64,000 bases of DNA, from the NCBI GenBank assembly GCA_041662205.1, contig JBAZSZ010000001.1, positions 226,494 to 290,493 of the forward strand. Direction: 5' to 3'. Position numbers and translations under genes: made by a program. The notes beneath the pieces were generated by a model that made no database searches, was not told the origin of the DNA, and saw only the letters and a list, made by a program, of their open reading frames with translations. This document shows positions 7,260-37,641 of this stretch, in pieces. Position 1 is the first letter of the stretch; each line of letters starts with the position of its first letter. Source of the stretch: Minisyncoccota bacterium. Its GTDB lineage: Bacteria; Patescibacteriota; Minisyncoccia; Phycocordibacterales; UBA9973.

Positions 7260-7279
7260 TTACTAAAATCTATATTCGA

Positions 7280-7625: not shown

Positions 7626-7785
7626 TTAAGGAGCTATCTTGATATTATATTACTAGATTTAACTATTACAAGATGCTCGAGACGCGTCGTTTTGGTATAA
7701 TAAAATTGTTAGCAATCACCTTATGGGGTAAGGAGCCAATTGGTTCTAACTCGAGTCTCCCAGCAAATTCTAGTAGAATAAATAC

Positions 7786-9685: not shown

Positions 9686-10405
9686 ATGCGAAAAGAAATT
9701 CAATTAACAACTAAAGACGGACATATTATTTATGGAACATTCGATTCAGCCCAAAAGAGTAAAACTCTATTGATTTTTGTTCATGGATTTACGGGACATA
9801 GAAATGAACACCATTATTTTAACGCTGCTTCTTTTTTCCCAGAAAAAGGTTTTGATACATTCAGGTTTGATTTTTATGGAGGTAAGTTGAACGCACGTTT
9901 GCTAAGTAAAGTTTCTTTACAGGAACACATTTCTGACTTAAAACTTGTTATTGACACTTTCAAAGAAAAATACGATGACATCATTCTGATTGGACATAGT
10001 CTAGGATGTATAGTTGTATTAAATACTGATTTATCAGATATTTCAAAAATTGTTTTGTGGGATCCTTCAAGTAAATTAAAAAATTTAAAAGAAAAAAATG
10101 CTGAATATAACGCTGATTTAGATAAATATATTTTTAATTCAAGATTAAGTATAATTGTTTCTAAAGAATTAGTTAAGGAGTGGCAAGATGTTAATATAGG
10201 TAATTTAGCTGAAAAAATAAATGTCCCTTGTAAATTTATTTTTGCTGGAAATCATAATAAACTTGAAGTATGGAAACCATTTTTAAGTAAAATAAAGGTG
10301 GCTAATGAATTTGCAATAGTTGAAGGTGCTAGTCATGTATTTATTGAAGAAGGCGTTGAACAAAAACTTTTCGAAGAAACCCTTAATTACATTAAGGTAC
10401 AATAA
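9686..10405 (+). CDS. alpha/beta-fold hydrolase (serine esterase/lipase-like)
   Basis: FVHGFTGH and nucleophile elbow GHSLG. Confidence 0.7.
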   Translation: MRKEIQLTTKDGHIIYGTFDSAQKSKTLLIFVHGFTGHRNEHHYFNAASFFPEKGFDTFRFDFYGGKLNARLLSKVSLQEHISDLKLVIDTFKEKYDDIILIGHSLGCIVVLNTDLSDISKIVLWDPSSKLKNLKEKNAEYNADLDKYIFNSRLSIIVSKELVKEWQDVNIGNLAEKINVPCKFIFAGNHNKLEVWKPFLSKIKVANEFAIVEGASHVFIEEGVEQKLFEETLNYIKVQ

Positions 10406-20397: not shown

Positions 20398-23319
20398 ATG
20401 ATTTCCCGTATATATGTGGCACCTAAAGGAAAAACTGATTTCATTAATTCTTACTTAATTTCACATAAGTTGGGAGTCGAAAAAATCCTAAAAATAGCTC
20501 AAGCTCTGACGAATCCAATCCTCGAAGAATTTTCTATAAATAAATTTCCCGATGTCGGACATCTGGCATCAAAATTTACTTATGCTATTGAAATAGGTTT
20601 TAAACCCGGGGTCACAGACAATGTAGGTCATACAGTGGAGGAAACTATTCTGGATTTATTGCATCTGAAAGATAAAAATGATTTAGCAGTCTACACTTCT
20701 AAAATTTATTTGGTTTCAAATTCTAAATTGGAAGATGTAGAAAAAATTGCTCTTACACTACACAATCCTTTAATTGAACGTTCTTATATCGCTAGTTTTG
20801 CTGAAATCAAAAAAGAAGGACTACCTTTAAAAGTTCCAAAAGTTATTCTCAAGAAAAATACCCCTGTCATTAATGTTTCTCTAAAAGTGCCTGATGAGGA
20901 ACTTGTAAAAATCGGTAAAGAAGGGATTTTGGGCAAGACAAACAGTAAGATAAAAGAAAGAAGGGGCCCGCTCGCTTTAGACTTGGCTTCAATGAAAGTA
21001 ATCCAAGAACATTTTAAAAAATTAAAAAGAGATCCGACTGATATTGAACTCGAATCTCTAGCGCAAACATGGTCTGAGCATTGCAAGCACACTATTTTTG
21101 CCAATCCTATCGAAGACATCAAGGATGGTTTGTATAAAACATATATAAAAGGCGCGACAAATTTAATACGCAAACAAAAAGGGAAGAAAGATTTTTGTGT
21201 CTCAGTGTTTAGTGATAATTCCGGTGGGATTATTTTTGATAAAGATTATTTAATAACGCATAAAGTTGAAACACACAATAGCCCTTCGGCTCTTGATCCA
21301 TTTGGAGGAGCTATCACGGGAATTGTGGGGGTGAATCGAGATACTATAGGCTTTGGCCTAGGCGCAAAACCAGTAGCCAATGCTTATGGTTTTTGTTTTG
21401 GTAATCCAGAAGACAAAAGGGCTCTTTTCCGCGATAAAAATTTAAGTCAAAAAATGCTTTCACCTAAACGCATAATGGAAGGAGTAGTAAAAGGAATAAA
21501 CGTAGGCGGAAATTGTTCTGGGATACCGACGCTTTCTGGTTTTGTTCATTATGATGAAAGGTATAGAGGCAAACCCTTGGTTTTTGCCGGAACAGTAGGA
21601 TTAATTCCAAGAAATTTACCCGCCTCTGGAGGGAATAATCGACCATCACACGAAAAACAGGCGCAAGTAGGAGATCACATTGTGGTAGTCGGAGGTAGAG
21701 TAGGGCTCGATGGCATCCATGGAGCAACTTTTTCTTCTGTAGTGATGGATTCGAGTTCTCCGGCTACTGCGGTGCAAATCGGTGACCCAATTACTCAAAA
21801 AAAATTAAGCGATGCAATAATCAAAGAAGCGCGAGATCTGAATTTATATAACAGTATCACAGACAATGGCGCAGGGGGGATTTCTTGTTCGGTTGCGGAA
21901 ATGGCAAAAGAATGCGGAGGAGCAAAAGTTTCGTTAGAAAAAGTTCCGTTAAAATACCCCGATCTTCGTCCGTGGGAAATTTGGATTTCAGAATCACAAG
22001 AACGTATGACTTTGTCAGTACCCAAGAAAAAATGGGAAGTATTTAAAAAATTAATGAATAGTCGGGGAGTAGAAGCGACTGTGATAGGTGAATTCACAAG
22101 TTCTGGAAAATGTATTGTGGATTATAGAAGTAAAAAGATAATGGATATCCCTATGGATTTTTTGCACGATGGCTTGCCGGAACAAAATTTAGTTACAGAA
22201 CCATTTATTTACAAAAATAATGAAATTAAACCTGAAACAAAAAAATCTTTTACTGAGATTTTGGAAAATTTACTTAGCAGTAAAAACATTAGTGGATTTT
22301 CCTTTATTTCCGAGCAGTATGATCACGAAGTGCAAGGATCTTCTGTTTTAAAACCTCTTTCCGGACGGGGTCGTATCAATACCGAAGCGCAAGTTTTAAA
22401 GCCAGTTTTAAATTCAAATAAAGGAGCTGTTTTATCTTCTAGCACTTATCCTTCTTATGGAGATATCAGCACTTATCACATGGCTGCTTGTGCGATAGAT
22501 ACTGCTATCAGAAATACTCTTTGCGCTGGTGGAACACTTTCGCATTTAGCTATTCTAGATAATTTCTGCTGGTGTTCATCTAATGATCCAAAACGCTTAG
22601 CTCAACTCATAGACTCAGTAAAGGCTTGCTACGACTACGCTGTAGGATACGGAACACCATTTATTTCTGGTAAAGATAGTATGTTTAATGACTTCAAAGG
22701 TTATGATGAAAAGGGTAATCCTGTGGCCGTCTCTATTCCACCGACACTTCTCATCTCAGCGATTAGCGTCATGTCTGATTTAAATAAAACTATTTCTCCT
22801 GAATTTAAAAATACAGGTGATGTGATTTATCTATTGGGAGAAACGAATGATGAACTAGGCGGAGGAGAGTATTTAAAAATGTTTGGCGTAGTAGGGGAAG
22901 ATGTACCCAAAGTAGATTTAAAGAAAAATATAAAAATATATCGTGCGTTAGAAAAAGTAATTCAAAAAGGATTAATTGCTTCAGCCATATCTCTTAATTC
23001 TGGCGGACTTGCGATTGCTCTCTCCAAAGCCTGTGTCGGAGGAATGGTAGGATGCAAAGTCTCCCTTGATCATATAGGAAATTCCTTTGGGATAGATGTA
23101 AAATTATTTTCTGAAAGCCAGGGAAGAGTTTTAATTTCTGTGTCTCCTCGAAATATCTCAGAATTTGAAAAAATAATAAAAAATATTCCTTATACTAAGT
23201 TAGGCAAAATAACTAAAGATGAGAAATTGATAATCACAAATGGTAAAAGTAAAGTGATAGAAACGAATGTTAAAAAATTACACAATGCTTACCATAAATT
23301 TTCTAATTCACAAAAATGA
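20398..23319 (+). CDS. purL: phosphoribosylformylglycinamidine synthase subunit PurL with ~190-aa N-terminal extension
   Basis: Canonical small-PurL core starts near residue ~190 (LAQTWSEHCKHTIF). The repeated AIRS-like domains are present. Confidence 0.9.
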   Translation: MISRIYVAPKGKTDFINSYLISHKLGVEKILKIAQALTNPILEEFSINKFPDVGHLASKFTYAIEIGFKPGVTDNVGHTVEETILDLLHLKDKNDLAVYTSKIYLVSNSKLEDVEKIALTLHNPLIERSYIASFAEIKKEGLPLKVPKVILKKNTPVINVSLKVPDEELVKIGKEGILGKTNSKIKERRGPLALDLASMKVIQEHFKKLKRDPTDIELESLAQTWSEHCKHTIFANPIEDIKDGLYKTYIKGATNLIRKQKGKKDFCVSVFSDNSGGIIFDKDYLITHKVETHNSPSALDPFGGAITGIVGVNRDTIGFGLGAKPVANAYGFCFGNPEDKRALFRDKNLSQKMLSPKRIMEGVVKGINVGGNCSGIPTLSGFVHYDERYRGKPLVFAGTVGLIPRNLPASGGNNRPSHEKQAQVGDHIVVVGGRVGLDGIHGATFSSVVMDSSSPATAVQIGDPITQKKLSDAIIKEARDLNLYNSITDNGAGGISCSVAEMAKECGGAKVSLEKVPLKYPDLRPWEIWISESQERMTLSVPKKKWEVFKKLMNSRGVEATVIGEFTSSGKCIVDYRSKKIMDIPMDFLHDGLPEQNLVTEPFIYKNNEIKPETKKSFTEILENLLSSKNISGFSFISEQYDHEVQGSSVLKPLSGRGRINTEAQVLKPVLNSNKGAVLSSSTYPSYGDISTYHMAACAIDTAIRNTLCAGGTLSHLAILDNFCWCSSNDPKRLAQLIDSVKACYDYAVGYGTPFISGKDSMFNDFKGYDEKGNPVAVSIPPTLLISAISVMSDLNKTISPEFKNTGDVIYLLGETNDELGGGEYLKMFGVVGEDVPKVDLKKNIKIYRALEKVIQKGLIASAISLNSGGLAIALSKACVGGMVGCKVSLDHIGNSFGIDVKLFSESQGRVLISVSPRNISEFEKIIKNIPYTKLGKITKDEKLIITNGKSKVIETNVKKLHNAYHKFSNSQK

Positions 23320-25073
23320 AAACTGAAACTAAGCAATGCCAAAACTGTAAGGAAAACTTCGTGATAGAGCAGGAAGATTTTAATTTTTACGAAAAAATAA
23401 AAGTCCCAACTCCGACTTTTTGTCCGCTATGTCGCGCGCAAAGAAGATTTGTTTTTAGAAATGAACGTAAACTTTTTAAAATCAAAGATGCTTTTACGGG
23501 TAAAAATATTTTTTCACTTTTTCCAGCAGAAAGTGGCAGAAAAGTCATTACTCAAGAAGAATGGTATGGAGACAGCTGGGATGCTATGGAATATGGGAGA
23601 GATTATGATTTTTCTAAAACATTCTTTGAACAATTTTTTGAACTTGAAAAAAAAGTGCCTATCTATAACCTAAATGTGCAGAGAATGATCAACAGCCCAT
23701 ATTCAGGAAATGCAACAGCCTTAAAGAATTGCTATCTTTGTTTTCATTCTAATTATTCTGAGGACTGTATGTATGGCAGTGCTAATGATTTTTGTAGAGA
23801 CTGTGTGGATACTTCTCATATTCAACATTCAGAACGTTGCTATGAATCTTTTTGGCTTAATAAATGTTATCAATGCTATTTCACCATAAAATCTGAAGAC
23901 TCTCGTAATTTGTATTTTTGCAGAGATTGCGTAGGTTGTAATGATTGTTTTGGTTGCGCAAATCTACGTAAGTCTTCCTATTGCATTTTTAATAAACAAT
24001 ACACGAAAGAAGAATACCAAAAAGAATTAGAAAAGATGAAACTGGAAACTATTTCAGGCACAAAAGAAGCGAGAGAGAAAGTTAGAGTATTTTGGAATAC
24101 TCAACCTATTAAAAATCACCAAGGACTTAAAAATTTAAATTCAACAGGATCTTTTGTGACAAATTGTAAAAATGTTAATGATGGTTATTTAATTCGAGAA
24201 GGTGAAAATATGCGCTACTGTCAATCCATGCAAGTACCTGCAAATAAAGATTGTTACGATACTTTTGCTTGGGGAGAAAATACAGAGCTTTCTTATGAAA
24301 CTGCAATATGTGGTGAAAATTCTTACAATATGAAATTTAGTTTTAATTGCTGGCCCACCTGTAGAGATAGTGAATATTGCATGGATCTTTTTAGTTGTTC
24401 AGATTGTTTTGGTTGTGTGGGTTTGAAAAAAAAGCAATATTGCATTTTTAATAAACAATTTACAAAAGAAGAATATCAAAAAATTGTGGGAAAAATTAAA
24501 GAACAAATGGATGAAGTTCCTTATGTAGATAAACAAGGTGTTATTTATAAATACGGAGAATTTTTTCCAGCTGAATTTTCTCAACTTGGGTATAATAATA
24601 CTGTAGCTCCTCAACATTTTCCACTGACAAAAGTAGAGGCAGAAAAGAAAGGATATTTATGGGTAGAAGCACCGCAAAGTGAGTATAAAATGACCATTAA
24701 GTCTTCCGAACTCCCAACCTCCATTCCAGAAGAAGATGAGATTCTAAAAGAAATCATAGAATGCGAGAACTGTAAAAAAGCTTATCGCATAATGGAAAAT
24801 GAATTGATTTTCTTGCGCAAGGAAAAACTACCTCTACCTAATTTGTGTCATGATTGCAGATATGATAGAAGAATAAAGGATAGGCTGACTATCAAATTAT
24901 ACGAAAGGTCATGTATGTGCGCAGGTGCTAAAGATGAAACTGGGATTTATAAAAATACAGTAAAACATCTTCATGGAGGTGAGCCATGTAGAGAGAAATT
25001 TAAGACTGGATATGCTCCAGAAAATAAAGAGGTAGTATATTGTGAAAAATGTTATCAGCAGGAAGTTTATTAA
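23316..25073 (+). CDS. Cys-rich zinc-ribbon-repeat protein, paralog family member A (unknown function), embedded in the pur operon
   Basis: N-terminus CQNCKENF..FYEKIKVPTPTFCPLCRAQRR. Internal CxxC-rich repeats (CRDCVGCNDCFGC..YCIFNKQYTKEEYQK occurs twice). C-terminus VYCEKCYQQEVY is identical in the paralogs at 54810 and 56041. Confidence 0.6.
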   Translation: MKTETKQCQNCKENFVIEQEDFNFYEKIKVPTPTFCPLCRAQRRFVFRNERKLFKIKDAFTGKNIFSLFPAESGRKVITQEEWYGDSWDAMEYGRDYDFSKTFFEQFFELEKKVPIYNLNVQRMINSPYSGNATALKNCYLCFHSNYSEDCMYGSANDFCRDCVDTSHIQHSERCYESFWLNKCYQCYFTIKSEDSRNLYFCRDCVGCNDCFGCANLRKSSYCIFNKQYTKEEYQKELEKMKLETISGTKEAREKVRVFWNTQPIKNHQGLKNLNSTGSFVTNCKNVNDGYLIREGENMRYCQSMQVPANKDCYDTFAWGENTELSYETAICGENSYNMKFSFNCWPTCRDSEYCMDLFSCSDCFGCVGLKKKQYCIFNKQFTKEEYQKIVGKIKEQMDEVPYVDKQGVIYKYGEFFPAEFSQLGYNNTVAPQHFPLTKVEAEKKGYLWVEAPQSEYKMTIKSSELPTSIPEEDEILKEIIECENCKKAYRIMENELIFLRKEKLPLPNLCHDCRYDRRIKDRLTIKLYERSCMCAGAKDETGIYKNTVKHLHGGEPCREKFKTGYAPENKEVVYCEKCYQQEVY

Positions 25074-25078
25074 AAAAA

Positions 25079-25831
25079 ATGAAAAAACCAAAAATAATAA
25101 TAATGTCGGGGTATGGATTAAATTGTGAAGAAGAAACAAAATTCGCTTTTGAAAAAGCGGGAGGAAATGCCGACATCATACATATTAATGATTTAATAAA
25201 AAAACCTAAAATGCTTTCAGGGTATCAAATTTTAGTTTTTCCTGGAGGATTTTCTTTTGGTGATGATACAGGTAGCGGAAAAGCTTATGCTAATAAATTT
25301 AAAAATCATTTAGCAAAAGAATTAGCAGAATTTTTATCTCGTGATACTTTAGCTTTAGGTATTTGTAATGGATTTCAAATAATAACTAATTTAGGAATAT
25401 TGCCTGGTGGACTTACTTATAATAAAAAAGGAAAATATTTAGACAGATGGGTGGATTTAAAAGCCAAAGGGGATAGTCCTTGGTTGAAAAATATTGGAAA
25501 AATATCATTACCAATAGCGCATGGTGAAGGACGTTATATAATTTCCTCTAAAGAATACAAAAAAATGAAAGAGAATAATGAAATTGCTTTCATATACTCA
25601 AATGGAGAAATTTGCGAGTTTCAAAACCTAGAAAAAAACCCAAATGGATCAGAACATGACATCGCAGGAGTTTTGGCATATAATGGGAGAGTTCTAGGTA
25701 TGATGCCACATCCGGAGAGAGCAATGTTTTCACATCAAAATCCAATGTGGCAAATGAATAAAAAAGTTTCCAAAGAAGGAGTAGGATTACAAATTTTTAA
25801 AAACGGTATTAATTATTTTTTAAATTCATGA
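25079..25831 (+). CDS. purQ: phosphoribosylformylglycinamidine synthase glutamine amidotransferase subunit PurQ
   Basis: Class I GATase: nucleophile LGICNGFQ and catalytic HPE near the C-terminus. ATG at 25079 chosen over the overlapping upstream start. Confidence 0.85.
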   Translation: MKKPKIIIMSGYGLNCEEETKFAFEKAGGNADIIHINDLIKKPKMLSGYQILVFPGGFSFGDDTGSGKAYANKFKNHLAKELAEFLSRDTLALGICNGFQIITNLGILPGGLTYNKKGKYLDRWVDLKAKGDSPWLKNIGKISLPIAHGEGRYIISSKEYKKMKENNEIAFIYSNGEICEFQNLEKNPNGSEHDIAGVLAYNGRVLGMMPHPERAMFSHQNPMWQMNKKVSKEGVGLQIFKNGINYFLNS

Positions 25832-27225
25832 GCGAATTAAAAGAAAAGTGTGGAATCGTAGGAATATACGGTAAGGATTTACCTATTGCTCGGTTAGCAT
25901 TTTTTGCCTTATTTGCATTACAACACAGAGGACAAGAAGCATCAGGAATAACCACAAATGATGGTAAAAAGTTTCGTACCCATAAAGGAGCAGGGCTCGT
26001 ATCTCAAGTATATACAGAAAAAACAATCAAAAAACTGACTGGATATGTAGCCATAGGACACAATAGATATTCTACCTCCAAAGGAGGAGCGCTAAATCAC
26101 GCACAACCAGTTGTAAATAATGATAAGTCTTTTGCTCTAGCGCACAATGGCAATTTGCCAAGCACTAAAGCATTAGAGAATTTTCTCTCTTCAAAAAAAG
26201 TATTGAAAAAAGATCGCAATGATTCAGAGCTCATGGCTGATGCAATTGATTTTTATCTCAAAGAAGGTAACTCAATTTCAAAATCTGTAGAAAAATCCTT
26301 TCCTTTATTTACTGGAGCTTTTTCTTTAGTAATGATGACTAAAGATACCTTGGTCGCCGTGCGAGACGCTTATGGAATGCGTCCGCTAGCTATAGGAAAG
26401 CTCAGCCTTGGTTATGTTGTTGCTTCCGAGACTTGCGCTCTTCAAACTGTCGGCGCAACATTTTTAAGAGAAGTAAAACCTGGAGAAATGATTATTATAA
26501 ATAAAAGTGGTCTTAAAAGTGTCCAACTCGCACCACCCAATCCAAAACACGATATATTTGAATATGTTTATTTCGCTCGACCAGATAGTGTGCTGAACGG
26601 CAAATTAATTTATGATGTTAGAAGAAATTTTGGAAAAGTTTTAGCTAGTGAATTTAAGAAAAAAGTTGATATTATCGTACCGGTACCCGATACGGCAATG
26701 CCGGTGGCCATAGGGTATAGTCAAGCTTCAGGTATTCCAATGGAGATGGCTTTGGTGAAAAATCGTTATGTTCATAGAACTTTTATCGAGCCCGACCAAA
26801 AATCCAGACGAAATAGTGTGGCACTCAAACTCATACCTTTACCACAAATTTTAAAAGGTAAAAAAATTATAGTAATAGATGATTCTATTGTCAGGGGACA
26901 TACCTGTAGAAAATTAGTTAAAACACTTTTTAAATCAGGCGCCAAGGAAGTGCATCTTTTAATTTCTTCCCCACCTGTTCGTTTTCCAGACTTTTATGGC
27001 ATGGATACTCCTAACCAAGATGAATTAATTGCTTCTTATAAAACAACGGAAGAAGTACGCAAATTCATGGGTGCTACATCACTCCATTATCTTTCTCTCG
27101 ATGGATTAATAAAAGCTATTGGACTACCAAAAGATAAATTATCTACTTCGTGCTTTACCGGTATTTATCCAATTGACTTAAAAGAACGCAAAGATGAAGT
27201 GGATTACGATGTTTCAAGGGAATAA
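25828..27225 (+). CDS. purF: amidophosphoribosyltransferase
   Basis: N-terminal nucleophile CGIVGIYG; PRTase motif VIDDSIVRG. Confidence 0.9.
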   Translation: MSELKEKCGIVGIYGKDLPIARLAFFALFALQHRGQEASGITTNDGKKFRTHKGAGLVSQVYTEKTIKKLTGYVAIGHNRYSTSKGGALNHAQPVVNNDKSFALAHNGNLPSTKALENFLSSKKVLKKDRNDSELMADAIDFYLKEGNSISKSVEKSFPLFTGAFSLVMMTKDTLVAVRDAYGMRPLAIGKLSLGYVVASETCALQTVGATFLREVKPGEMIIINKSGLKSVQLAPPNPKHDIFEYVYFARPDSVLNGKLIYDVRRNFGKVLASEFKKKVDIIVPVPDTAMPVAIGYSQASGIPMEMALVKNRYVHRTFIEPDQKSRRNSVALKLIPLPQILKGKKIIVIDDSIVRGHTCRKLVKTLFKSGAKEVHLLISSPPVRFPDFYGMDTPNQDELIASYKTTEEVRKFMGATSLHYLSLDGLIKAIGLPKDKLSTSCFTGIYPIDLKERKDEVDYDVSRE

Positions 27226-27236
27226 AAATAAATATT

Positions 27237-27851
27237 ATGGGCACGAAAATAAAATTGGCAATATTAATTTCTGATGCCGGTACTGGCACTAATTTAAAAG
27301 CTATTATCGATGGAGTTAATTCCGGTACAATCAACGCTGAAATTTGCGCAGTAATTTCAGATACTATAAATGCAAAAGGACTAGAACATGCTAAGGCAAA
27401 TAATTTAAAAATTGAAATTTGTGAAAATAAAAAAGACTTACTGCCACTTTTAAAAAAAATAGAGTCGGATTATGTTTGCTTGGCTGGCTGGAAACAAATT
27501 ATTCTAGATGAAGTGATTCTCGCTTTTCCAAATAAGATTTTAAATTTACACCCTGGACTAATTCCTGACACTGTTGAAGTAAACTATAAAAATCCTGATG
27601 GGACAGATGCTCTTTGGAATAAAGGCATGATGACCAATAAAGCAATCAAGAATTTCTTTGATCAAAAGTCTACTTTTGCCGGTTCGAGTGTCCATTTTTT
27701 AACTTTAAATTTTGATTTTGGGCCAGTCCTAGGAAGAACTTTTGAGAAAATTGAAGAGAGTGACAATATCGAATCCTTATACGAAAGATTAAAGAAAAAA
27801 GAAAACAAGCTATATATAGAAGTTTTAGAAAAATTGTGTCAAAATGAATAA
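27237..27851 (+). CDS. purN: phosphoribosylglycinamide formyltransferase
   Basis: SDAGTGTNLKAIID N-terminus and LNLHPGLIP; sits between purF and purD. Confidence 0.7.
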   Translation: MGTKIKLAILISDAGTGTNLKAIIDGVNSGTINAEICAVISDTINAKGLEHAKANNLKIEICENKKDLLPLLKKIESDYVCLAGWKQIILDEVILAFPNKILNLHPGLIPDTVEVNYKNPDGTDALWNKGMMTNKAIKNFFDQKSTFAGSSVHFLTLNFDFGPVLGRTFEKIEESDNIESLYERLKKKENKLYIEVLEKLCQNE

Positions 27852-29136
27852 TATGCAAAAAATTTTAATTATAGGTTCTGGCGGAAGGGAACACGCTATC
27901 GGGTGGAAAGTAGCGCAATCACCAAAAGCTGGACAGATCTTTTTCGCCCCTGGAAATGGCGGAACTAGCGATATCGGCATCAATGTAGATATAAAAGCGA
28001 CAGATATTTCTGGATTATTAGAATTTGCTCAAAAAGAAAAAATAGATTTGACATTGGCCTTGCCTGATGACCCGCTCGCACTTGGAATTGCAGACGAATT
28101 TAAAAAAAGCAATTTGCGTATTTTTGGTCCGACTCAAAATGCCAGCAAAATAGAATGGTCAAAGGCTTTTTCCAAAGACTTTATGCATCGACACAATCTT
28201 TCAACTGCAAAATTTGAAACATTTGGTGATTTTGAAAAAGCCAAAGATTACGTTAGAAGGCAATCAATGCCGATTGTTATAAAAGCGAGCGGTCTGGCCT
28301 TAGGCAAAGGTGTAATCATTTGCCAGAATCTAGAAGAAGCAAATAAAGCGCTCGAGGATATGTTTGTAAAAAAAGTTTTTGGAGATGCTGGCACTACCAT
28401 AGTGATAGAAGAATTTTTAATCGGACCAGAAATTTCTATTCATGCTTTTACGGACGGTCAGAATTATAAAATGTTTCCTACTTCACAGGATCATAAGAAA
28501 ATAGGTGAAAATGATACTGGGTTGAATACCGGCGGAATGGGTACGATTGCACCACTTCCTTTTGTAACAGATGAACTTTTGGAAAATATTGAGAAAAATA
28601 TCGTCGCTCCAACTGTTGACGCCATGAGCAAAGACGGCAATCCATTTTTAGGTGTGATTTATCCCGGACTCATGCTCACCCAAAATGGTCCTAAAATTCT
28701 TGAATATAATGCGCGTTTTGGTGACCCAGAAACACAAACCTATATGCGACTTTTAGATACGGATATCTTAGACATTTTTAACGCCTGTGTTGATGGGAAG
28801 CTCGATCAAATACAAATAAATTGGAGTAAAAAATTTGCTTGCACGATAGTCCTGGCTTCTGGAGGGTATCCGGAAAATTACGAAAAGGGGAAAGTAATTT
28901 CAGGAATTGAAGAAGCAGAAATGCAACCAGATATTGTAGTCTTCCATGCTGGTACAAAAATACAGAATAATCAGCTTGTTACAAACGGCGGACGAGTGCT
29001 AGGGGTTACTGCTACTGGCGACACCCTAGAAGAAGCGCTTGAAAAAGCTTACAAAGCCATAGAAAAAATTTCTTTTGAAGGTATGCAATACCGAAAAGAT
29101 ATAGGCAAAGGTGCACTAAAAATAAAAAATTTCTAA
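27844..29136 (+). CDS. purD: phosphoribosylamine--glycine ligase
   Basis: ILIIGSGGREHAI start and ATP-grasp core. Confidence 0.9.
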   Translation: MNNMQKILIIGSGGREHAIGWKVAQSPKAGQIFFAPGNGGTSDIGINVDIKATDISGLLEFAQKEKIDLTLALPDDPLALGIADEFKKSNLRIFGPTQNASKIEWSKAFSKDFMHRHNLSTAKFETFGDFEKAKDYVRRQSMPIVIKASGLALGKGVIICQNLEEANKALEDMFVKKVFGDAGTTIVIEEFLIGPEISIHAFTDGQNYKMFPTSQDHKKIGENDTGLNTGGMGTIAPLPFVTDELLENIEKNIVAPTVDAMSKDGNPFLGVIYPGLMLTQNGPKILEYNARFGDPETQTYMRLLDTDILDIFNACVDGKLDQIQINWSKKFACTIVLASGGYPENYEKGKVISGIEEAEMQPDIVVFHAGTKIQNNQLVTNGGRVLGVTATGDTLEEALEKAYKAIEKISFEGMQYRKDIGKGALKIKNF

Positions 29137-30515
29137 TTATCCCAATTGAAAAATTGTTCTCGGTCTGGGCCGGTACCGACGGAGATGATCTTTATATTAA
29201 GGTCGGAGAGTTTATTTTTTATATATTTTAAATAGGAGACGAGTTCTTTGGAAACTTTCTTTTTATTGTTTACGCCGTAATTTTTTTCTCCCCAGCCGTG
29301 GATATCTTCTGTCACCACATTCGTTACTTTACTTAAATAAAGTGGAAACTCTTTTAAAATTTTATTTTTATTTTTCTCTTTTACTTTGTATCCCGTGACC
29401 ACTTTTATTTTATCACTCAAACAAATATCAGCTTTGTTTATAAAAATTCTATTTGCACCCGAAAGCTCTATGGCATGGCGCAAAGCAAATAAATCAAGCC
29501 AACCGCACATCCGCGGACGGCCAGTAGTCGCTCCGAATTCTTGCCCCGCATTCTGAAAAAGCTTTTCCAATGCTTCATCTTTTATTCTAGCAGGGAAGTT
29601 TCCACCGCCTACTTTAGTAGTATAAGCCTTGATCACTCCATAGATATTTCGCAAATAAGTATGAGGCACGCCCAAACCCAAGCAAACGTTGGCTGGTAGG
29701 GTATTACTGCTTGTAACATTAGGATAATCACCAAAATCAACATCCAACATCACCGCTTGTGCGCCTTCGGCTAAAATATTTTTTCCGTCTTTCAGTCTTT
29801 TTTGAATTAAAGATGATACGTCACAAATTTTAAGTTTCTTTATTTCTTTTACTACTTTCAACCATTTTTTCTTTGATTTTTTTATTTTTTTTAGATCAAT
29901 TTCAAAACCATATTTTTCTCGGTACATATTCAAAAGATTCATATGAAATTCAGACAAAATCTTTTCTTTCTTTTCAAAATCCGGTAATAATATATCACCC
30001 ATCAAAAATGCTCTCCTGTTTCGCACATCAGCATAAGCTGGACCAATACCTCTAGATGTCGTACCTATCTTTGTTCCTAGTTTATCGTTTAATTTACTTC
30101 GGCGATGTTCTTCGGCTTGATCTAAAAAAGGATGTAAGTATGAAACTAATTTTGCTCGATTAGAAATAAAAAGACGAGGAACAACATTGAATCCTAAATT
30201 TTTTAATTGAGCAATTTCTGAAATCAAAGACACAGCATCTACCACAACACCATTGCCAATAAATAATTCAATTTTTTTGTGAAGGCAACCAGACGGAACA
30301 ATGTGCCCAATAAAAGTAGTTTTGCCTATTTTGAGAGTGTGTCCAGCATTAGCACCCCCTTGAAAACGAGCTACTCCAGAATAGATACCAGAAGATAAAA
30401 GTTGGTCTATATTTTTACCTTTTCCTTCGTCTCCCCATTGAAGGCCGACAACCACGTCGATAAATCCTTTATTGCCCAACACTGTAGTTAGGAGATTCTT
30501 TAGTAATGACGACAT
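29133..30515 (-). CDS. purA: adenylosuccinate synthetase
   Basis: [12 protein letters not shown]-loop and GIGPAY. Confidence 0.9.
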
Positions 30516-31983
30516 CGTGAGGATGACTTTCTTTTATACCAGAATTAGTGATACGAACAAATCTTACATTATCTTGAAGAGTTTTTATATTTTCGGTTCC
30601 ACAATATCCCATGCCAGCACGGAGGCCTCCAACAAGCTGATAAATTACTTCCGCTAAGACACCCTTGAAAGAAACTCTACCGACTATTCCTTCGGGTACA
30701 AGTTTTTTAATATCTTCTTCCATGTCTTGAAAATATCGGTCTTTAGAGCCGAGCTGCATAGCCTCGATAGAACCCATGCCACGATAAGTTTTATATTTTC
30801 TGGATTCAAAAATAATTATTTCACCAGGGGATTCTTCAACTCCAGCAAAGAGGGAACCAGCCATAACAGAACTTGCTCCAGCCGCGATGGCTTTGGTAAT
30901 GTCGCCTGTATATCTGATACCTCCATCAGCAATAATTGGCACATTTGTACCTTTTAAAGCTTGTGCTACTTCATACACAGCAGAAAATTGAGGATAACCC
31001 ACGCCAGTGATTACTCTAGTAGTGCAAATTGATCCTGGTCCAATGCCGACTTTCACTGCATCTGCTCCAGCTTTGACTAAAGCCAGTGCTGCCTCTCCTG
31101 TAGCAATATTTCCGGCAATAACTTCTAATTGAGGAAATTCTTTTTTTATTTTTTTTAACATTTCGATCACCCCTTTTGAATGACCGTGAGCAGTATCGAT
31201 AGCTACCACATCTACCCCATTTTGCACTAAAGCTCTAACTCTTTCCAAGGTATCATTTGATATCCCGACTGCGGCACCGACACGCAGACGACCCAAATTA
31301 TCTCGAGAAGATTTTGGACGAGATTTTACTTTCATTATATCTTTATAAGTGATGAGACCAATAAGTTTATTTTTACTATCAACCAATGGCAATTTCTCAA
31401 CTTTGTGTTCAGTTAATATTTTTTCAGCTTCTTTCAGATCAGTGCGAATATTTCCGGTTATCAAATTTTCTTTGGTCATGATTTCACCCACTGAAAGTTC
31501 TAGATTTTCCTGAAATCGTAAATCACGATTGGTCAAAATTCCTTTTAATTCCATATTTTTATCTACGATTGGAATCCCGCCAATTTTGTTTTCCTTCATA
31601 ATAGAAAAAGCCTCACTAAGCAAGGATTCCGGTGTTAAAGTTATAGGGTCATGAATCATGCCACTTTCAGAACGTTTCACTTTGCGTACTTCAGCGGCTT
31701 GTTTTTCAATACTCATATTCTTATGAATAATTCCTATGCCTCCTTCTTGAGCCATTGCTATAGCCATCGCTCCTTCAGTAACCATATCCATGGCGGCAGA
31801 AACAATGGGGATGCTGAGTGTTATTTTTTTAGTAAGCTTTGAAGAAATATCTACATCTCGAGGCAAGACTTCTGAATATTGTGGTACCAGTAAAACATCA
31901 TCATAAGCCAAACCTTCTTTAAAGTTTTCTTTATCTTTTTTAACTTTATTTAATACTTTATTTTTTATTACTTTCAAAGCCAT
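30469..31983 (-). CDS. guaB: IMP dehydrogenase
   Basis: CBS pair plus TIM barrel; [11 protein letters not shown] catalytic loop. Confidence 0.9.
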
Positions 31984-32008
31984 AATATATCGTGTATACT
32001 ACCATATT

Positions 32009-33535
32009 ATGAATGATATACAAATACTGATTGTGGACTATGGGTCGCAATATACATTGGTTATTGGTAGAACTCTGCGTGAGCTTGGCATACGAAGCAT
32101 AATATTACCACCGAATAAAGCGGACAACTGGCTAAAAAATAATACTCCTAAAGCAGTTATCCTCTCTGGAAGCAACTGGAGTGTTCACAACCAAGGAGCA
32201 CCAAGTATTCCCCAAATACTTGATACTACAGGTAAAAAATATTTAATTTTAGGAATATGTTACGGTATGCAACTCTTGGCATATAAAAAGGGAGGCAAAG
32301 TAGAACGACCACTCGGACATAGAGAATATGGACCAGCTACAGTAACGCTAAAAACTACACATCCTCTTTTTAATACAGTTTCTAAAAAAACTCAAGTCTG
32401 GGCAAGTCATGGAGACACTGTCACGAAACTTCCAAAAGGTTTTTTTTCTATCGCGACGTCCGGCGGGAATGCAGCAATGAGTGACAAGACTAATCGCGTG
32501 CTCGGAATTCAATTTCATCCAGAAGTCGTAGACACAAAAGAAGGTAAAAAGATATTGCAAAATTTTTTAGATATGGCTAATTGTAAAAAAGACTGGAACC
32601 CCACAAATTTAATCCACGAAATTCAAAAAGAAGTTTTGGAAATTGTGGGCGAGAAAGAAAAAGTTATTTTAGGGGTTTCTGGCGGAGTGGACTCTACTAC
32701 TTTGGCTGCTGTACTCGCTCCAGTTTTGGGCAAAAGATTAATTTGTGTAGCTATTGATACCGGAGGTTTAAGACAAAATGAAGTAGCAGAATTGAAAAAT
32801 AATACTAAAAGTACTGGCATTAAAAATCTAAATATAATTTCAGCCGGAGATGAATTTATAAAAAATATTGGTACAACAATTGACGGAGAGAAAAAAAGAG
32901 CAAAGTTCCGTACTGTTTACAAGAGAATTTTTGAAGAACAAATAAAAAAAGCAGGCGCAAAATTTATTGTTCAAGGAACTTTAGCGACTGACATCATCGA
33001 AAGTGGAAAAGCAGGGGAGTCAGCTATGATCAAAACGCATCACAATGTAGGTCTCAACTGGAAAGTAGAAGACTTACATCCTTTTCGTAATTTATTTAAA
33101 TATGAAGTTCGAGAGCTTGCTCGAGTGCTCAAACTTCCAAAAGCTATTTCAGAACGTAACCCTTTCCCAGGTCCAGGTTTATTTTTGAGAATTGTCGGCA
33201 CGCCAGTTTCTAAAGAAAAACTCGAACTCGTACGGGAAGCAGATAAAACTGTAACAGATATATTAAAAAAACATGATGTCGCCAAAGATATTTCTCAGCT
33301 AATTGTTGCGCTTCTTGGTGTCGATTCTGTTGGAGTAAAAGGAGATGAACGAGTTTACGGTCATTCTATTGCAATTCGTGCTGTGCAAACAGTAGATTTT
33401 ATGACTGCTAAAGGTTACTATTTTCCAGAAGTAGTGATGGAAGAAATTACAAACGCTCTCACTAAACATAAAGGCATAGTCCGGGTATTTTTTGACATGA
33501 CCCCTAAACCTCCGGCTACAACGGAGTTTGAGTAA
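32009..33535 (+). CDS. guaA: GMP synthase (glutamine-hydrolysing)
   Basis: GATase domain (GICYGMQ) plus PP-loop SGGVDS. Confidence 0.9.
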   Translation: MNDIQILIVDYGSQYTLVIGRTLRELGIRSIILPPNKADNWLKNNTPKAVILSGSNWSVHNQGAPSIPQILDTTGKKYLILGICYGMQLLAYKKGGKVERPLGHREYGPATVTLKTTHPLFNTVSKKTQVWASHGDTVTKLPKGFFSIATSGGNAAMSDKTNRVLGIQFHPEVVDTKEGKKILQNFLDMANCKKDWNPTNLIHEIQKEVLEIVGEKEKVILGVSGGVDSTTLAAVLAPVLGKRLICVAIDTGGLRQNEVAELKNNTKSTGIKNLNIISAGDEFIKNIGTTIDGEKKRAKFRTVYKRIFEEQIKKAGAKFIVQGTLATDIIESGKAGESAMIKTHHNVGLNWKVEDLHPFRNLFKYEVRELARVLKLPKAISERNPFPGPGLFLRIVGTPVSKEKLELVREADKTVTDILKKHDVAKDISQLIVALLGVDSVGVKGDERVYGHSIAIRAVQTVDFMTAKGYYFPEVVMEEITNALTKHKGIVRVFFDMTPKPPATTEFE

Positions 33536-33547
33536 AAAAATAAATTT

Positions 33548-35047
33548 ATGAATAAAAAAATAACAAAAAAAATTCAGAGTGCTTTAATTTCAGTTTTTAA
33601 TAAAGATGGACTGGAAGAAATAGTTAAACTACTTGCTAAGCATAATGTGAAAATTATTTCGACTGGCGGTACTGCGGAATTTATCCGCAAGCTCAATGTG
33701 CCGGTAACTGAAGTGGAGAAAATCACAAATTATCCTGCATTATTTGGAGGTAGAGTAAAAACACTGCAACCGCAAATTTTTGGCGGGATTTTAAATCGCC
33801 GGGATAACCAAAATGATCAAAAAGAAAAAACAGAGCATAAAATAGAAGATATCGATCTAGTAATAGTGGACTTATATCCTTTTGAAGAAACTCTCGCTAG
33901 TGGCGCAGATGAAGAAGAAATCATAGAAAAAATAGACATCGGAGGAATATCATTAATTCGCGCAGCCGCAAAAAATTTTAATGATGTAGTTGTAATTTCT
34001 TCAAAGAATCAATATAAAGAACTTTTGCAAATACTAGAAAATGGTAATGAAACTAGTTTAGAAGAAAGAAAAAAATTCGCAGGCAATGCTTTTGAAGTGA
34101 CGAGTCTTTACGATAGTGCTATACGTGGATATTTCCAAGGCAAAAAACTTCGTTACGGGGAAAACCCTCACCAAAAATCAGAATTCATAGGTAGTCTCGA
34201 AGAAAGTTTCATCCAACTTCACGGTAAAGAACTTTCATATAATAATTTAATAGATACTGAGGCGGCCATTATGGCTGTTTATGATTTCAAGGACCCTGCT
34301 TTTGGTATAGTCAAACATATGAATACTTGTGGTTTAGCTGTTAGACCCGAAGGACATTTATTTGAGGCATACGAGGCGGCTTATAATGCCGATCCACTTT
34401 CAGCTTTTGGTGGCATACTTGCAGCCAATAGAATTATCGAGGAAGATATCGCTAGGCTCATAAAAGAACAAAAACTTTTTGTAGAAGTTATCATCGCGCC
34501 AGATTTTTCCAGGGAAGCTTTAAATATATTAATGGAGAAAAAAGATTGTAGAATTTTAAAATGGAAAAATCCAAATCTTTCAGCAAAACAAAACCGAACT
34601 TGTTTTACAGGAATTCTTTCGCAAGATCGAGACACTCATATAGAAACTGAAGGAGATTTTAAAATAGTCACAAAACGTGAACCAACAAATCAAGAAAAAA
34701 AAGATTTACTCATAGCCGCAGTGATAACAAAGCATTTAAAATCAAATGCCATAGCCCTAGTGAAAGATGGCACACTTATTTCTATGGGGTGCGGGCAAAC
34801 ATCACGCATTGATGCATTAAAGCAAGCCATCGATAAAGCTAGGAAATTTAATTTTTCGCTCAAGGGCGCAGTGATGTCATCAGAAGCATTTTTCCCATTT
34901 CCTGACTGCGTAGAGCTAGCGGGAGAAGAAGGTATCACCGCGGTACTTCATCCTGGAGGTTCGAAAAATGACCAAACGTCAATCGACATGGCGGACAAAT
35001 ATAATATAGCAATGGTAACAACTAGTTTCAGACATTTTAAACACTAA
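33548..35047 (+). CDS. purH: bifunctional AICAR transformylase / IMP cyclohydrolase
   Basis: MGS-like N-domain (ISTGGTA) and AICARFT C-domain. Confidence 0.9.
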   Translation: MNKKITKKIQSALISVFNKDGLEEIVKLLAKHNVKIISTGGTAEFIRKLNVPVTEVEKITNYPALFGGRVKTLQPQIFGGILNRRDNQNDQKEKTEHKIEDIDLVIVDLYPFEETLASGADEEEIIEKIDIGGISLIRAAAKNFNDVVVISSKNQYKELLQILENGNETSLEERKKFAGNAFEVTSLYDSAIRGYFQGKKLRYGENPHQKSEFIGSLEESFIQLHGKELSYNNLIDTEAAIMAVYDFKDPAFGIVKHMNTCGLAVRPEGHLFEAYEAAYNADPLSAFGGILAANRIIEEDIARLIKEQKLFVEVIIAPDFSREALNILMEKKDCRILKWKNPNLSAKQNRTCFTGILSQDRDTHIETEGDFKIVTKREPTNQEKKDLLIAAVITKHLKSNAIALVKDGTLISMGCGQTSRIDALKQAIDKARKFNFSLKGAVMSSEAFFPFPDCVELAGEEGITAVLHPGGSKNDQTSIDMADKYNIAMVTTSFRHFKH

Positions 35048-35165
35048 AATAGTAAAGTTGACAAGTCCTTCTCAGAGTGTATCCTTTAAAGGAATCTAAT
35101 AAAAAAATTTGTTTAGGATTTGCTTTGTAAATCCTTTTGAAAAATCAATATTAAAGGAGGCATAT

Positions 35166-35546
35166 ATGCTAAAGTTAGAATTAGAAGTCAAAAATTTGTT
35201 GCGATTTTATTGTAACAAATCTTTTCGAGAAGTATGTAAATTATTAATCAATGACACATGCCCTGTACTTACTGATGATATAGTAGCGGGCATGTATATT
35301 GTAGCATTCTCCAGATACGAATCTAGAACCGAAGTGTTTGAGGACCTGCCCACAGAGGAATGCAGAGAGCATTTTATAAAAATTAGGGGAGGGAGCTTCA
35401 AAAGATTTATCCTCTTCAAAAAAGAAGACGACAATGGTGTTCTCGTAGGACAAGGTGTCGATGAGAATTACTACGTTGTCCTCAGCTGGGACAGAAATGG
35501 TTATGATCTTTGGGAACCGGAAGTGCTGTTTCCAAGTAACAGATGA
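35166..35546 (+). CDS. small hypothetical protein, tandem paralog 1
   Basis: SD AAGGAGG 5 nt upstream of ATG 35166. C-terminus VVLSWDRNGYDLWEP is homologous to the next gene. Confidence 0.5.
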   Translation: MLKLELEVKNLLRFYCNKSFREVCKLLINDTCPVLTDDIVAGMYIVAFSRYESRTEVFEDLPTEECREHFIKIRGGSFKRFILFKKEDDNGVLVGQGVDENYYVVLSWDRNGYDLWEPEVLFPSNR

Positions 35547-35591
35547 ATGCTTGAAAAATAGCAAAAAACATTTAACTTGGGAGGTCAAACG

Positions 35592-35975
35592 ATGAACAAA
35601 GAAGGTTATTCTTTTTTAAAAGTAACTTCGATGCGTGAACTATGTAATGCTCTGGTTGTAAACGAAACACCTTTTCTCGACATAAACTTGTTGAGAATGT
35701 TTTCTGCAGTTTCAACATCAACGTTTGAATCGCAGTATTGGATTTCTGTAAATATTCCAAAGAAATCCAAAAAACATTTCAGGATAATTCAGAAGCTCGG
35801 GGGTATCATAAATCCATTCTTCACAAGATTTACACTTTTTTTAAAATCATCTGATGGAATAATCGTAGGTTTCAGAGACGATAAAACTTATTTTGTTGTC
35901 GCCGCTTGGGACAAAAATGGAATTGATCTTTGGACTCCAAAGATTGATGTTCCTGAAGGAATAAGTAGTAGTTGA
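35592..35975 (+). CDS. small hypothetical protein, tandem paralog 2
   Basis: SD GGGAGG upstream of ATG 35592. C-terminus VVAAWDKNGIDLWTP matches paralog 1. Confidence 0.5.
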   Translation: MNKEGYSFLKVTSMRELCNALVVNETPFLDINLLRMFSAVSTSTFESQYWISVNIPKKSKKHFRIIQKLGGIINPFFTRFTLFLKSSDGIIVGFRDDKTYFVVAAWDKNGIDLWTPKIDVPEGISSS

Positions 35976-35995
35976 TGGATCCGAACCTACTATCA

Positions 35996-36048
35996 AAAGG
36001 CCAACATGCTCCGGGAGGAAAGTGTGTTGGCCTTTAGCATTTGTTTTA
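35996..36048 (+). terminator. rho-independent terminator (11-bp perfect stem aaaggccaaca / tgttggccttt, T-rich tail)
   Basis: Read directly; lies between paralog 2 and purE. Confidence 0.7.
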
Positions 36049-36073
36049 AATTAAAAAAATGATAAGATAAAAT

Positions 36074-36595
36074 ATGGAAAAAAATCCTATTGTTGGTATA
36101 GTCATGGGCTCAGATTCTGATTTAGAAGTGATGGCAGAAGCAGCGAAAGTTTTCGAAGAATTTAATGTGCCTTTTGATCTGACTGTGGCTTCAGCGCATC
36201 GCAGTCCTGACTTAGTGCACAAATATACAACTAGCGCAAAATCCCGCGGATTAAAAATTATTATCGCAGGTGCAGGTGGAGCAGCGCATCTAGCTGGGGT
36301 CATCGCATCACTCACGACTCTTCCAGTCATTGGTGTACCTATTAAAACAAAGAACCTAGACGGTCTCGATTCAATTCTTTCTACTATCAATATGCCCCCA
36401 GGCATACCTGTCGCAACTGTCGGAATTAACTCTGCAAAAAATGCTGGGTTGTTAGCTATTACCATACTTGCCATAAATGATAAAAATTTAGAAAAAAAAT
36501 TAATTGCCTATAAAAATAAAATGAAAGTGGAGGTGAAAATAAAAGGAGAGAAACTTTTAAAAGTTGGATATAAAAAATATTTAAATAATAAATAA
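36074..36595 (+). CDS. purE: PurE-family mutase/carboxylase (N5-CAIR mutase or AIR carboxylase)
   Basis: IVGIVMGSDSD...IAGAGGAAHLAG...PVIGVP is the PurE fold signature. Confidence 0.85.
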   Translation: MEKNPIVGIVMGSDSDLEVMAEAAKVFEEFNVPFDLTVASAHRSPDLVHKYTTSAKSRGLKIIIAGAGGAAHLAGVIASLTTLPVIGVPIKTKNLDGLDSILSTINMPPGIPVATVGINSAKNAGLLAITILAINDKNLEKKLIAYKNKMKVEVKIKGEKLLKVGYKKYLNNK

Positions 36596-36599
36596 AAAA

Positions 36600-37640
36600 A
36601 TGAGCGACTTGTATAAACAAGCTGGTGTAAATATTGAAGCTGGAAACGAAGTTGTAAGGCGGATCAAAGAAAGTGTGGCGAGTACTCACACTAATGCTGT
36701 ACTTACAAATATCGGACACTTTGGAGGACTATATGATTTAGGAGAAATTATTAAAAATTATAAACATCCGATCTTAGTACAAAGCATCGATGGTGTAGGA
36801 ACAAAACTTTTAGTAGCGAAAATGGCAAACAAATACGACTCCGTAGGTGAAGATATGGTCGGACATAGTTGTGGGGATATTCTCGCAATGGGTGCACGGC
36901 CTATTACATTTCTAGACTATGTCGCCAATGAGACACTTATACCAGAAGAAATGGAACAAATGGTTAGAGGTATGGCAAAGGCCTGCAAAGATGCGGGAGT
37001 CGCCATTATTGGCGGCGAAACCGCTGAAATGCCAGGTGTATACATGAAAGGCGAACATGATATCGCTGGATGTATTTCTGGTATAGTAGAAAAAGATAAA
37101 ATAATAACAGGAGAGAAAATTACAGAAGGAGATATTATTTTTGGCCTTGCCTCATCAGGACTACATACAAATGGATTTTCTCTTGCCAGAAAATTAATTT
37201 TTGAAAAAGCCTCACATACGGTAGAAGAAAAAATTCCAGAACTTGGCATGACAGTAGGGGAAGCGCTTTTGCAAGTTCACACTAATTATACAAAGCCAAT
37301 ACTAGAAATACTTGATTCTGAAATTGAAATAAAAGGCATCGCGCATATTACTGGCGGAGGATTTGTAGAAAATATTCCTCGCATACTTCCTAAAAATTTG
37401 AATGCAGAAATAAAAAAGGGTTCTTGGCCCGTCCTTCCAATTTTCTCTTTTATGCAAAAAATTGGTACTATTAGTGAACAGGAAATGTACACTGCATTCA
37501 ATATGGGTATTGGTATGGTTCTGGTTTCCAAAATATCAGAGAAAACAAGAATTGAAGAAATTTTAAAAAAATATCAAAATTATAAAATTTATGAAATTGG
37601 AAAAATTATTAATGGAGAAGGAAAAGTAATTTTTATATAA
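36600..37640 (+). CDS. purM: phosphoribosylformylglycinamidine cyclo-ligase
   Basis: YKQAGVNIEAGNE N-terminus and AIRS domains. Confidence 0.9.
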   Translation: MSDLYKQAGVNIEAGNEVVRRIKESVASTHTNAVLTNIGHFGGLYDLGEIIKNYKHPILVQSIDGVGTKLLVAKMANKYDSVGEDMVGHSCGDILAMGARPITFLDYVANETLIPEEMEQMVRGMAKACKDAGVAIIGGETAEMPGVYMKGEHDIAGCISGIVEKDKIITGEKITEGDIIFGLASSGLHTNGFSLARKLIFEKASHTVEEKIPELGMTVGEALLQVHTNYTKPILEILDSEIEIKGIAHITGGGFVENIPRILPKNLNAEIKKGSWPVLPIFSFMQKIGTISEQEMYTAFNMGIGMVLVSKISEKTRIEEILKKYQNYKIYEIGKIINGEGKVIFI

Positions 37641-37641
37641 A

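Follow-up and report, generated by a model that had tools for sequence, protein, structure and literature searches.

A zinc-finger and beta-solenoid protein encoded between purL and purQ belongs to a large Paceibacteria family that often neighbours VirD4-like ATPases

A conserved gene in the purine operon

The 585-amino-acid (aa) protein considered here, which we call X, is encoded between purL and purQ in a 64,000-nucleotide stretch of DNA (the window) from a Minisyncoccota bacterium (contig JBAZSZ010000001.1 of assembly GCA_041662205.1, forward-strand positions 226,494 to 290,493); all positions below are counted from the first letter of this stretch. X is a member of a large protein family with zinc-finger-type ends and two beta-solenoid modules, most sampled members of which are found away from purine genes and whose commonest neighbours are two VirD4/TraD-like ATPases. 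At the locus itself, X is placed among the genes for the subunits of formylglycinamidine ribonucleotide (FGAM) synthase:

20398..23319, + strand: purL (973 aa), the small-type subunit of FGAM synthase, extended at its N-terminus; matches AIRS, AIRS_C and FGAR-AT_linker, and TIGR01736 with E 1.5e-154
20398..20883, + strand: PurS-like domain at the N-terminus of PurL (residues 1-162), assigned from hidden Markov model matches
23316..25073, + strand: X, open reading frame (ORF) for the 585-aa zinc-finger / beta-solenoid protein; 69 kDa, isoelectric point (pI) 6.7
25079..25831, + strand: purQ, glutaminase subunit of FGAM synthase; GATase_5 with E 1.9e-71, TIGR01737 above cut-off

The start codon of X (ATG, 23316-23318) overlaps the purL stop codon (23317-23319) to form an ATGA, and its own stop codon (TAA, 25071-25073) is followed after a gap of 5 nt by the purQ ATG at 25079, which is the start that fits the GATase_5 domain. 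This reading frame with its start, stop, overlap and gap agrees with a preliminary description of the locus, as does the C-terminal ending, VYCEKCYQQEVY. The same description had proposed co-transcription with the purine operon, which fits the overlap, the short gap and the lack of any terminator-like site on the + strand from purL to purQ; promoter-like matches between purL and purQ are fewer than in shuffled sequence. X is positioned for co-expression with the pur operon and is translationally coupled to purL via the ATGA overlap. With a ratio of non-synonymous to synonymous substitution rates (dN/dS) of 0.085-0.10 against orthologues in two related contigs, the same as that of purL, and with at least 6,651 homologues, X is by sequence criteria a functional gene under strong purifying selection and far beyond a chance ORF. 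Its GC content (~0.32) is that of the adjacent genes. An 11-mer, AAAAATGAAAA, occurs at 23312..23322 and again at 25075..25085 (+), where it flanks X and covers the start codons of X and purQ; the window contains 5 copies of it, compared with 1.2 expected. The pair may represent a precise route for the loss or gain of X, or may simply be ordinary start-codon context.

The preliminary description had also stated that the window has no PurS-like ORF of 80 aa. A separate purS-sized gene was indeed not seen in the window, but the statement is misleading, as residues 1-162 of PurL match models of PurS and of the N-domain of single-chain FGAM synthases. The PurS model NF005019 matches PurL residues 63-128 (E 1e-3 in the whole protein and 2.7e-5 in the isolated domain), and among 12 orthologous PurL N-domains six match NF005019 and seven the single-chain FGAM synthase model TIGR01857, with a best E of 7e-9; comparison of the N-domain with the PDB, by sequence or profile, gave no match. 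On these profile matches, the enzyme is read as a PurS-PurL fusion with a separate PurQ, in which PurS is not missing, and the fusion layout is kept in all related pur loci examined. Since the PurS-like domain is fused to PurL, X fills no PurS-shaped gap, and X itself matches no PurS model at E up to 1 (Pfam, NCBIfam); X as a replacement for PurS is ruled out on both grounds. No riboswitch was found upstream of purL in an Rfam search.

The genes around X form a near-complete de novo purine cluster (20398..39947), which runs purL, X, purQ, purF, purN, purD, purA (-), guaB (-), guaA and purH, and then purM, purC and purB. Most Paceibacteria are without de novo purine synthesis. Such a cluster is unusual for the group, and its block order takes two forms in related contigs.

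Architecture of X

Conservation and subfamily clustering were analysed on a set of 239 full-length family members, to which the percentages of Cys conservation below refer. The domain order along X is zfA, zfB, an aromatic/acidic motif, solenoids 1 and 2, each with a cap and a helix of its own, a second conserved motif, zfA' and zfB':

23316..23465, + strand: zfA, N-terminal treble-clef finger (C8, C11, C36, C39), with a basic helix after it; four Cys 98-100% conserved; homologous to residues 476-527
23466..23690, + strand: degenerate ribbon zfB and the aromatic/acidic motif (W83, D86, W88, D98, F103, Q106), seen as conserved columns
23691..24050, + strand: beta-solenoid module 1; its end is formed by a helix and the conserved cap C205-x2-C208-x2-C211-x2-C214 ... 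YCIFNKQYTKEEY
24099..24515, + strand: beta-solenoid module 2, homologous to module 1 (hhalign 99.9%, E 5e-36), ending in FGCVGLKKKQYCIFNKQFTKEEY and a helix
24516..24743, + strand: conserved motif region YGEFFP.E.S..GYNNT.A...FPLTK, with near-invariant G414, F416, P418, S422, Y426, N427 and A431
24744..24896, + strand: zfA', C-terminal treble-clef finger (C483, C486, C511, C514); Cys 90-99% conserved; homologous to the N-terminal finger (E 5e-21)
24897..25070, + strand: zfB', C-terminal ribbon (C533, C535, H553, C558, C576, C579) of the CxxC-x17-CxxC / zf_Tbcl_2 type; C533, C558, C576 and C579 97-99% conserved

X contains 38 cysteines, and not the roughly 50 reported previously, along with 11 CxxC motifs. 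About 17 of the cysteines are kept family-wide, namely those of the terminal fingers, C205/208/211/214, C367 and C376, and most of the solenoid cysteines vary. Two internal repeats had been noticed before, an N-terminal CxxC...CxxC module that recurs near the C-terminus and a C..C.GC..L....YCIFNKQ(Y/F)TKEEY module that occurs twice. Both are borne out by profile-profile comparison (hhalign), and both extend further than described: residues 1-52 align with residues 476-527 at 99.4% probability (E 5e-21), and residues ~130-241 align with residues 278-394 at 99.9% probability (E 5e-36) over 112 columns, the second of the two modules being the tail end of this 112-column duplication. A confident model of X, built by AlphaFold2 (AF2) on 51 family members, has a predicted local distance difference test (pLDDT) score of 88.3 and a predicted template modelling (pTM) score of 0.87.

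Across the family, conservation is concentrated in the ends and in the solenoid caps, and the rungs differ among paralogues. In zfB, where the family consensus has CxxC...CxxC, all four Cys are gone from the window's subfamily; Cys at zfB position 58, for example, has a frequency of 0.57 family-wide vs 0 in the orthogroup. The finger types can be recognised in relatives of X, with zf_Tbcl (PF13451) matching 16 of 51 (best E 2.5e-6) and zf_Tbcl_2 (PF23477) matching 12 of 51, and on a short paralogue encoded in the window the PF23477 match covers the residues equivalent to zfB'. X itself stays below threshold with PF13451, PF23477 and TIGR04272. Small Methanosarcina proteins that consist of the CxxC-x17-CxxC domain alone bind zinc, as measured by inductively coupled plasma mass spectrometry (PMC12704099). 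Of the metal centres suggested in the preliminary description (zinc or iron-sulfur), zinc binding by X is plausible from its finger types, and the protein probably has three or four structural zinc sites. A classical ferredoxin-type C..C..C...C motif is absent from X, which has C202-x2-C205-x2-C208-x2-C211-x2-C214, and neither X nor its 51 relatives match an iron-sulfur model in Pfam. The same proteins show no match to the DnaJ-type cysteine-rich domain PF00684, the motif of X being CxxCFGCxxL. A cysteine-ladder metal cluster along the solenoid is ruled out, as most solenoid cysteines are not conserved.

The maximum 19-residue hydropathy of X is 0.75. Because of its near-neutral pI and the absence of a hydrophobic segment, X is most likely a soluble, cytoplasmic protein. 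Whole-protein matches for X were not found in Pfam, NCBIfam or PADLOC, where finger matches below threshold were the only ones; among the PADLOC defence models, X gave only Csx20 (E 0.0022, no stretch passing alone), and two window paralogues gave none. Sequence searches of the PDB with X or with the family profile were likewise negative, and a Foldseek search of the AF2 model against the PDB and viral models gave nothing at E <=1e-3 except small zinc-ribbon overlaps. X does not show the combination of a signal peptide with the repeat motif that marks the curli and antifreeze-type families.

A large family of old paralogues

The homologues of X, retrieved from 5.8 billion proteins, are nearly all 580-600 aa long and all unnamed, and in an exhaustive HMMER search the family comprises 3,715 clusters at 50% identity. 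It is present in at least 576 loci of species-representative genomes and was seen solely in Patescibacteria of the Paceibacteria group, the titles of the genomes that bear it naming Paceibacterota, Nomurabacteria, Staskawiczbacteria, Harrisonbacteria, Moranbacteria and similar groups. Most loci contain 2-10 tandem paralogues, which are 30-50% identical among themselves. Orthologues stay ~70% identical between species, from which it follows that the paralogues are old and that each is conserved in its own right. We are highly confident that X belongs to this family and is not a PurS protein. Two further members are encoded in the window, next to scpA-scpB:

56041..57744, - strand: second family member, 567 aa, 38% identical to X over its full length (tblastn E 1e-115); directly downstream of scpA-scpB
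54810..55988, - strand: third family member, 392 aa; a shortened form whose only solenoid module aligns to both halves of X; zf_Tbcl_2 at the C-terminus
57728..59022: scpB and scpA

A family gene beside ScpB is found in 3 loci, including the window.

The slot between purL and purQ across genomes

For a reverse test, 80 loci around genes for close homologues of PurQ (73-87% identity) were collected from metagenomes, of which 57 were informative once near-duplicates had been removed. One or more X genes lie directly upstream of purQ in 38 of these 57 distinct pur loci, with the complete purL-X-purQ arrangement in 23 of those, so that the co-occurrence of the family with pur genes, a check suggested in the preliminary description, is not a one-off. 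In 19 of the 57, purL directly adjoins purQ. A single X gene occupies the slot in 32 loci, and pairs and triplets of X genes are found in 3 loci each. Of the 23 complete loci, 12 have an ATGA overlap between purL and X, and an ATGA overlap of purL with purQ is found in 14 of the 19 loci that lack X. PurL is equally long in loci with and without X, which rules out that PurL has changed to make up for a missing X.

At least five subfamilies, only ~40% identical to each other, supply the occupants of the slot, with '71' and '9' accounting for most of them. The X of the window is a member of subfamily '41', which is found in at least five different genomic contexts, mainly in ATPase arrays (described below) of other genomes, with 12 of its 28 members, and with just 4 in the slot. 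In a tree of PurQ and PurF, occupants of subfamilies 71 and 9 are seen throughout, X-less lineages are scattered, and subfamily 41 is present in the window's clade only. Loci with different subfamilies may have the X-to-purQ spacer in common, as is the case for the pairs L088/L094 and L107/L156. Conserved hairpin-like sequences are contained in these spacers (L107 ~9952..10000 and L156 ~9910..10000; L088 ~7683..7759 and L094 ~9942..10000).

The slot is thus old, widespread and dispensable, and it has been emptied repeatedly and its occupant swapped among paralogue subfamilies. In the simplest history, purL and purQ were long ago separated by an array of X genes, after which the occupant was repeatedly lost and replaced through recombination between paralogues. 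A recent horizontal insertion of X is ruled out by its neighbour-like GC content and the age of the slot. X had no match among phage records (tblastn).

VirD4-like ATPases as the commonest neighbours

Gene neighbourhoods were examined in 79 species-level genome loci, picked by similarity to X. Just 2-3 of the 79 are near pur genes, and most of the sampled members are in loci without any. By far the commonest neighbours of the family are two paralogous VirD4/TraD-like ATPases, which are encoded within 6 kb in 35 of the 79 loci and account for 39 of the 181 genes directly beside X genes (in 28 loci). The most frequent neighbourhood consists of dnaK, an ATPase, two to eight X genes, in some cases CutA, the second ATPase and dnaJ. 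At least 12 loci have a one-strand order of dnaK, a zinc-ribbon VirD4-like ATPase, two to four X genes, a second VirD4-like ATPase and dnaJ; the alternative order found in other genomes is ATPase, two to eight X genes, CutA, ATPase and again a number of X genes. A CxxC-x17-CxxC finger scoring above the TIGR04272 cut-off is present in one ATPase of the pair, and this finger is homologous to the ribbons of the X family, as it aligns with the N-terminal zfB of the X family at 96.5% (E 1e-9) and with the C-terminal zfB' at 80% (E 1.4e-5; hhalign). CutA1 is encoded inside X arrays in 8 loci. The other neighbours are varied housekeeping genes, including those for a cytidylyltransferase-like protein, RsmE, EamA, PGK, DnaG, ScpB and PemK.

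Several features of single loci may be added. The ATPase/X block interrupts the usual dnaK-dnaJ pair in L004, L010, L013, L015-L018, L024, L025, L032 and L036, and arrays of 8-10 tandem family genes, interleaved with both ATPases and CutA1, are found in L083 (744..21767) and L084 (767..18614). In L166, two neighbouring ORFs (305 and 202 aa, at 6511..8166) between grpE and dnaK both match the X family and look like a split or frameshifted gene. Genes for PemK/MazF-like toxins stand beside ATPase/X arrays in L005, L030, L053, L060, L066, L166 and L167, a Y1 transposase was seen in L166 and a methyltransferase-Mrr fusion in L167, which suggests that the ATPase/X region also gathers mobile or defence genes.

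Patescibacteria genomes contain about two homologues of the type IV coupling protein (T4CP) each, which are seldom near virB4 and are possibly exapted (PMC12102498). The X family is not mentioned in that survey, nor in a paper on expression in Paceibacteria (PMC10936435), and a literature search did not find a description of the family or of its tie to the T4CP homologues of Patescibacteria. We regard the family and its neighbourhood as undescribed; this novelty rests on absent matches, and the mechanism proposed below is not part of it.

A proposed role for X and its alternatives

Our favoured reading, held tentatively and with slightly less than even confidence, is that X is a zinc-stabilised solenoid that acts as a client or adaptor of VirD4-like ATPases, and that the copy in the pur operon is there for its expression and not for FGAM synthesis. 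The gene sandwich and the shared ribbon are among the grounds for it. In this model, the working partners of the X family would be the two apparently soluble VirD4/TraD-like ATPases between which the X genes are sandwiched, the constant zinc-finger ends would dock onto the ATPase that bears the same ribbon, and the variable solenoid faces would confer paralogue-specific specificity, with X serving the ATPases either as client (cargo) or as adaptor. The position in the pur operon would give steady co-expression without any purine-specific activity. That X is without a purine-specific role seems to us reasonably probable; the partnership with the ATPases is a possibility about which we are rather more doubtful than confident.

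Several points weigh against this model. A VirD4-like ATPase is not encoded within the 64-kb window, the partnership being drawn from other genomes only, and a physical or functional link between X and the ATPases is putative. The ~70% identity of orthologues is unusually conservative for a secreted cargo, tightly folded zinc proteins would be awkward substrates for a translocating ATPase, and the dnaK/dnaJ neighbourhood could instead hint at proteostasis. In addition, the slot is retained in two thirds of lineages, and family genes are found at further junctions of the purine cluster (purN|purD, after purB and guaA|purH), which together could mean a real link to purines or nucleotides.

Such a link was at the centre of the preliminary description, which had proposed functional coupling to FGAM synthase. 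X would then bind PurL and/or PurQ and assemble, stabilise or regulate the complex while being made in step with it, as would suit the ATGA coupling to purL, the short gap to purQ, the equal rates at which X and purL evolve, the family genes at further purine-cluster junctions, and the retention of the slot in related bacteria (38 of 57 pur loci, 12 of the 23 complete ones having the ATGA overlap). The proposal nonetheless fits the wider data poorly and is unlikely: pur genes are nearby in only 2-3 of the 79 loci picked by similarity to X, X is absent from 19 of 57 pur loci with PurL length unchanged, the slot is shared out among at least five subfamilies ~40% identical, subfamily 41 sits in ATPase arrays elsewhere, and PurS is already supplied as a fusion to PurL. 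The alternative put forward at the time, a tolerated accessory insertion, comes closer to the evidence, except that X is not junk, because it is under strong purifying selection. The family could also be a self-propagating passenger that inserts between co-translated genes (purL|purQ, dnaK|dnaJ, after scpB) and hitch-hikes with little benefit to the cell. Positional turnover is indeed fast for a 70%-identical gene, with subfamily 41 in at least five contexts, the ATGA overlap of purL and purQ in 14 of 19 X-less loci is one that X adopts, and the 11-nt repeat AAAAATGAAAA is present on both sides of X in the window. We nevertheless consider this very unlikely, given the dN/dS of ~0.09, the many paralogues that very small genomes have retained over long times, a GC content like that of the neighbours, the lack of a match in phage records and the absence from X of any transposase, integrase or nuclease motif found by us; AAAAATGAAAA is also a common start-codon context, with 5 copies in the window.

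There are two further possibilities. The treble-clef fingers and basic helices could bind DNA or RNA, and the family would then act on the chromosome, on imported DNA or in operon regulation, together with DNA-translocase-like ATPases. Basic helices follow both zfA fingers (CRAQRRFVFRNERK and CRYDRRIKDR; segment pI ~8.4-8.5), ATPases of the VirD4/TraD type are DNA-handling motors in conjugation, and copies of the family adjoin scpA-scpB and dnaG; the whole protein is, however, near neutral (family median pI 6.3), it matches no known DNA- or RNA-binding domain, and the interchangeable occupants of the pur slot speak against regulators specific to an operon; we regard nucleic-acid binding as unlikely. 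Alternatively, the cysteine-rich paralogues, together with CutA, could act as a buffer that binds zinc or other divalent cations, in keeping with a median of 33 cysteines per protein (239 members), with CutA1 within arrays in 8 loci and with zinc binding by a related finger type (PMC12704099). To such a metal store we give hardly any credence, as most solenoid cysteines are not conserved, a simple sink has no need of a rigid conserved architecture or of ancient, separately kept paralogues, and the ATPase neighbourhood would be left unexplained.

Other features of the window

The sole Rfam match at gathering threshold in the window is a LOOT RNA (RF03000) at 4426..4544 (+), with 85.8 bits and E 8.5e-15. 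No tRNA genes were found in the 64 kb.

Implications

Paceibacteria genomes are tiny, yet up to ten tandem copies of a 1.7-kb X-family gene are kept in sampled loci under strong purifying selection. In the sampled Paceibacteria loci, these ATPases typically sit within X arrays between dnaK and dnaJ, which provides the T4CP homologues without a known role (PMC12102498) with concrete candidate partners. It is unlikely, but worth stating, that the family of X, CutA and both of the apparently soluble VirD4-like ATPases, placed between dnaK and dnaJ, constitute an undescribed ATP-driven system across Paceibacteria. If so, it would be either the missing cargo set of a type IV secretion apparatus of Patescibacteria or a cytoplasmic machine that handles zinc proteins, and the copies in purine clusters would tie it to nucleotide supply in the few purine-making lineages. 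For purine metabolism, X would be a conserved passenger and not a new subunit.

Comparison with known systems

No characterised family or system holds X; what is familiar about it is limited to the finger modules and the class of its fold. The termini of X resemble the zf_Tbcl (PF13451), zf_Tbcl_2 (PF23477) and TIGR04272 fingers in having two CxxC knuckles at the family spacing, and these knuckles (C8/C11/C36/C39, C483/C486/C511/C514 and C558/C576/C579, with C533) are 90-100% conserved. Fingers of the zf_Tbcl type are small stand-alone or appended domains, whereas in X they cap a 585-aa two-solenoid protein and one ribbon is without cysteines. As a beta-solenoid, X is closest among named proteins to curli CsgA (8c50), insect and plant antifreeze or ice-binding proteins (1ezg, 3ult, 1m8n) and left-handed hexapeptide-repeat proteins. 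With PurS, which in the Bacillus-type order purS-purQ-purL precedes purQ, X shares the position directly upstream of purQ; X is seven times larger and without similarity to PurS, and a PurS-like domain sits in PurL.

In Bartonella, the bep effector genes stand beside virD4. By analogy, bep-like arrays and X arrays have in common tandem paralogues with constant termini and variable middles next to VirD4-like ATPases. In contrast to the Bartonella system, the ATPases near X appear soluble (the one sequence inspected has no N-terminal hydrophobic stretch), are seldom found close to virB4 (PMC12102498) and are located between dnaK and dnaJ, any export of X is hypothetical, and the orthologues of X are unusually conserved.

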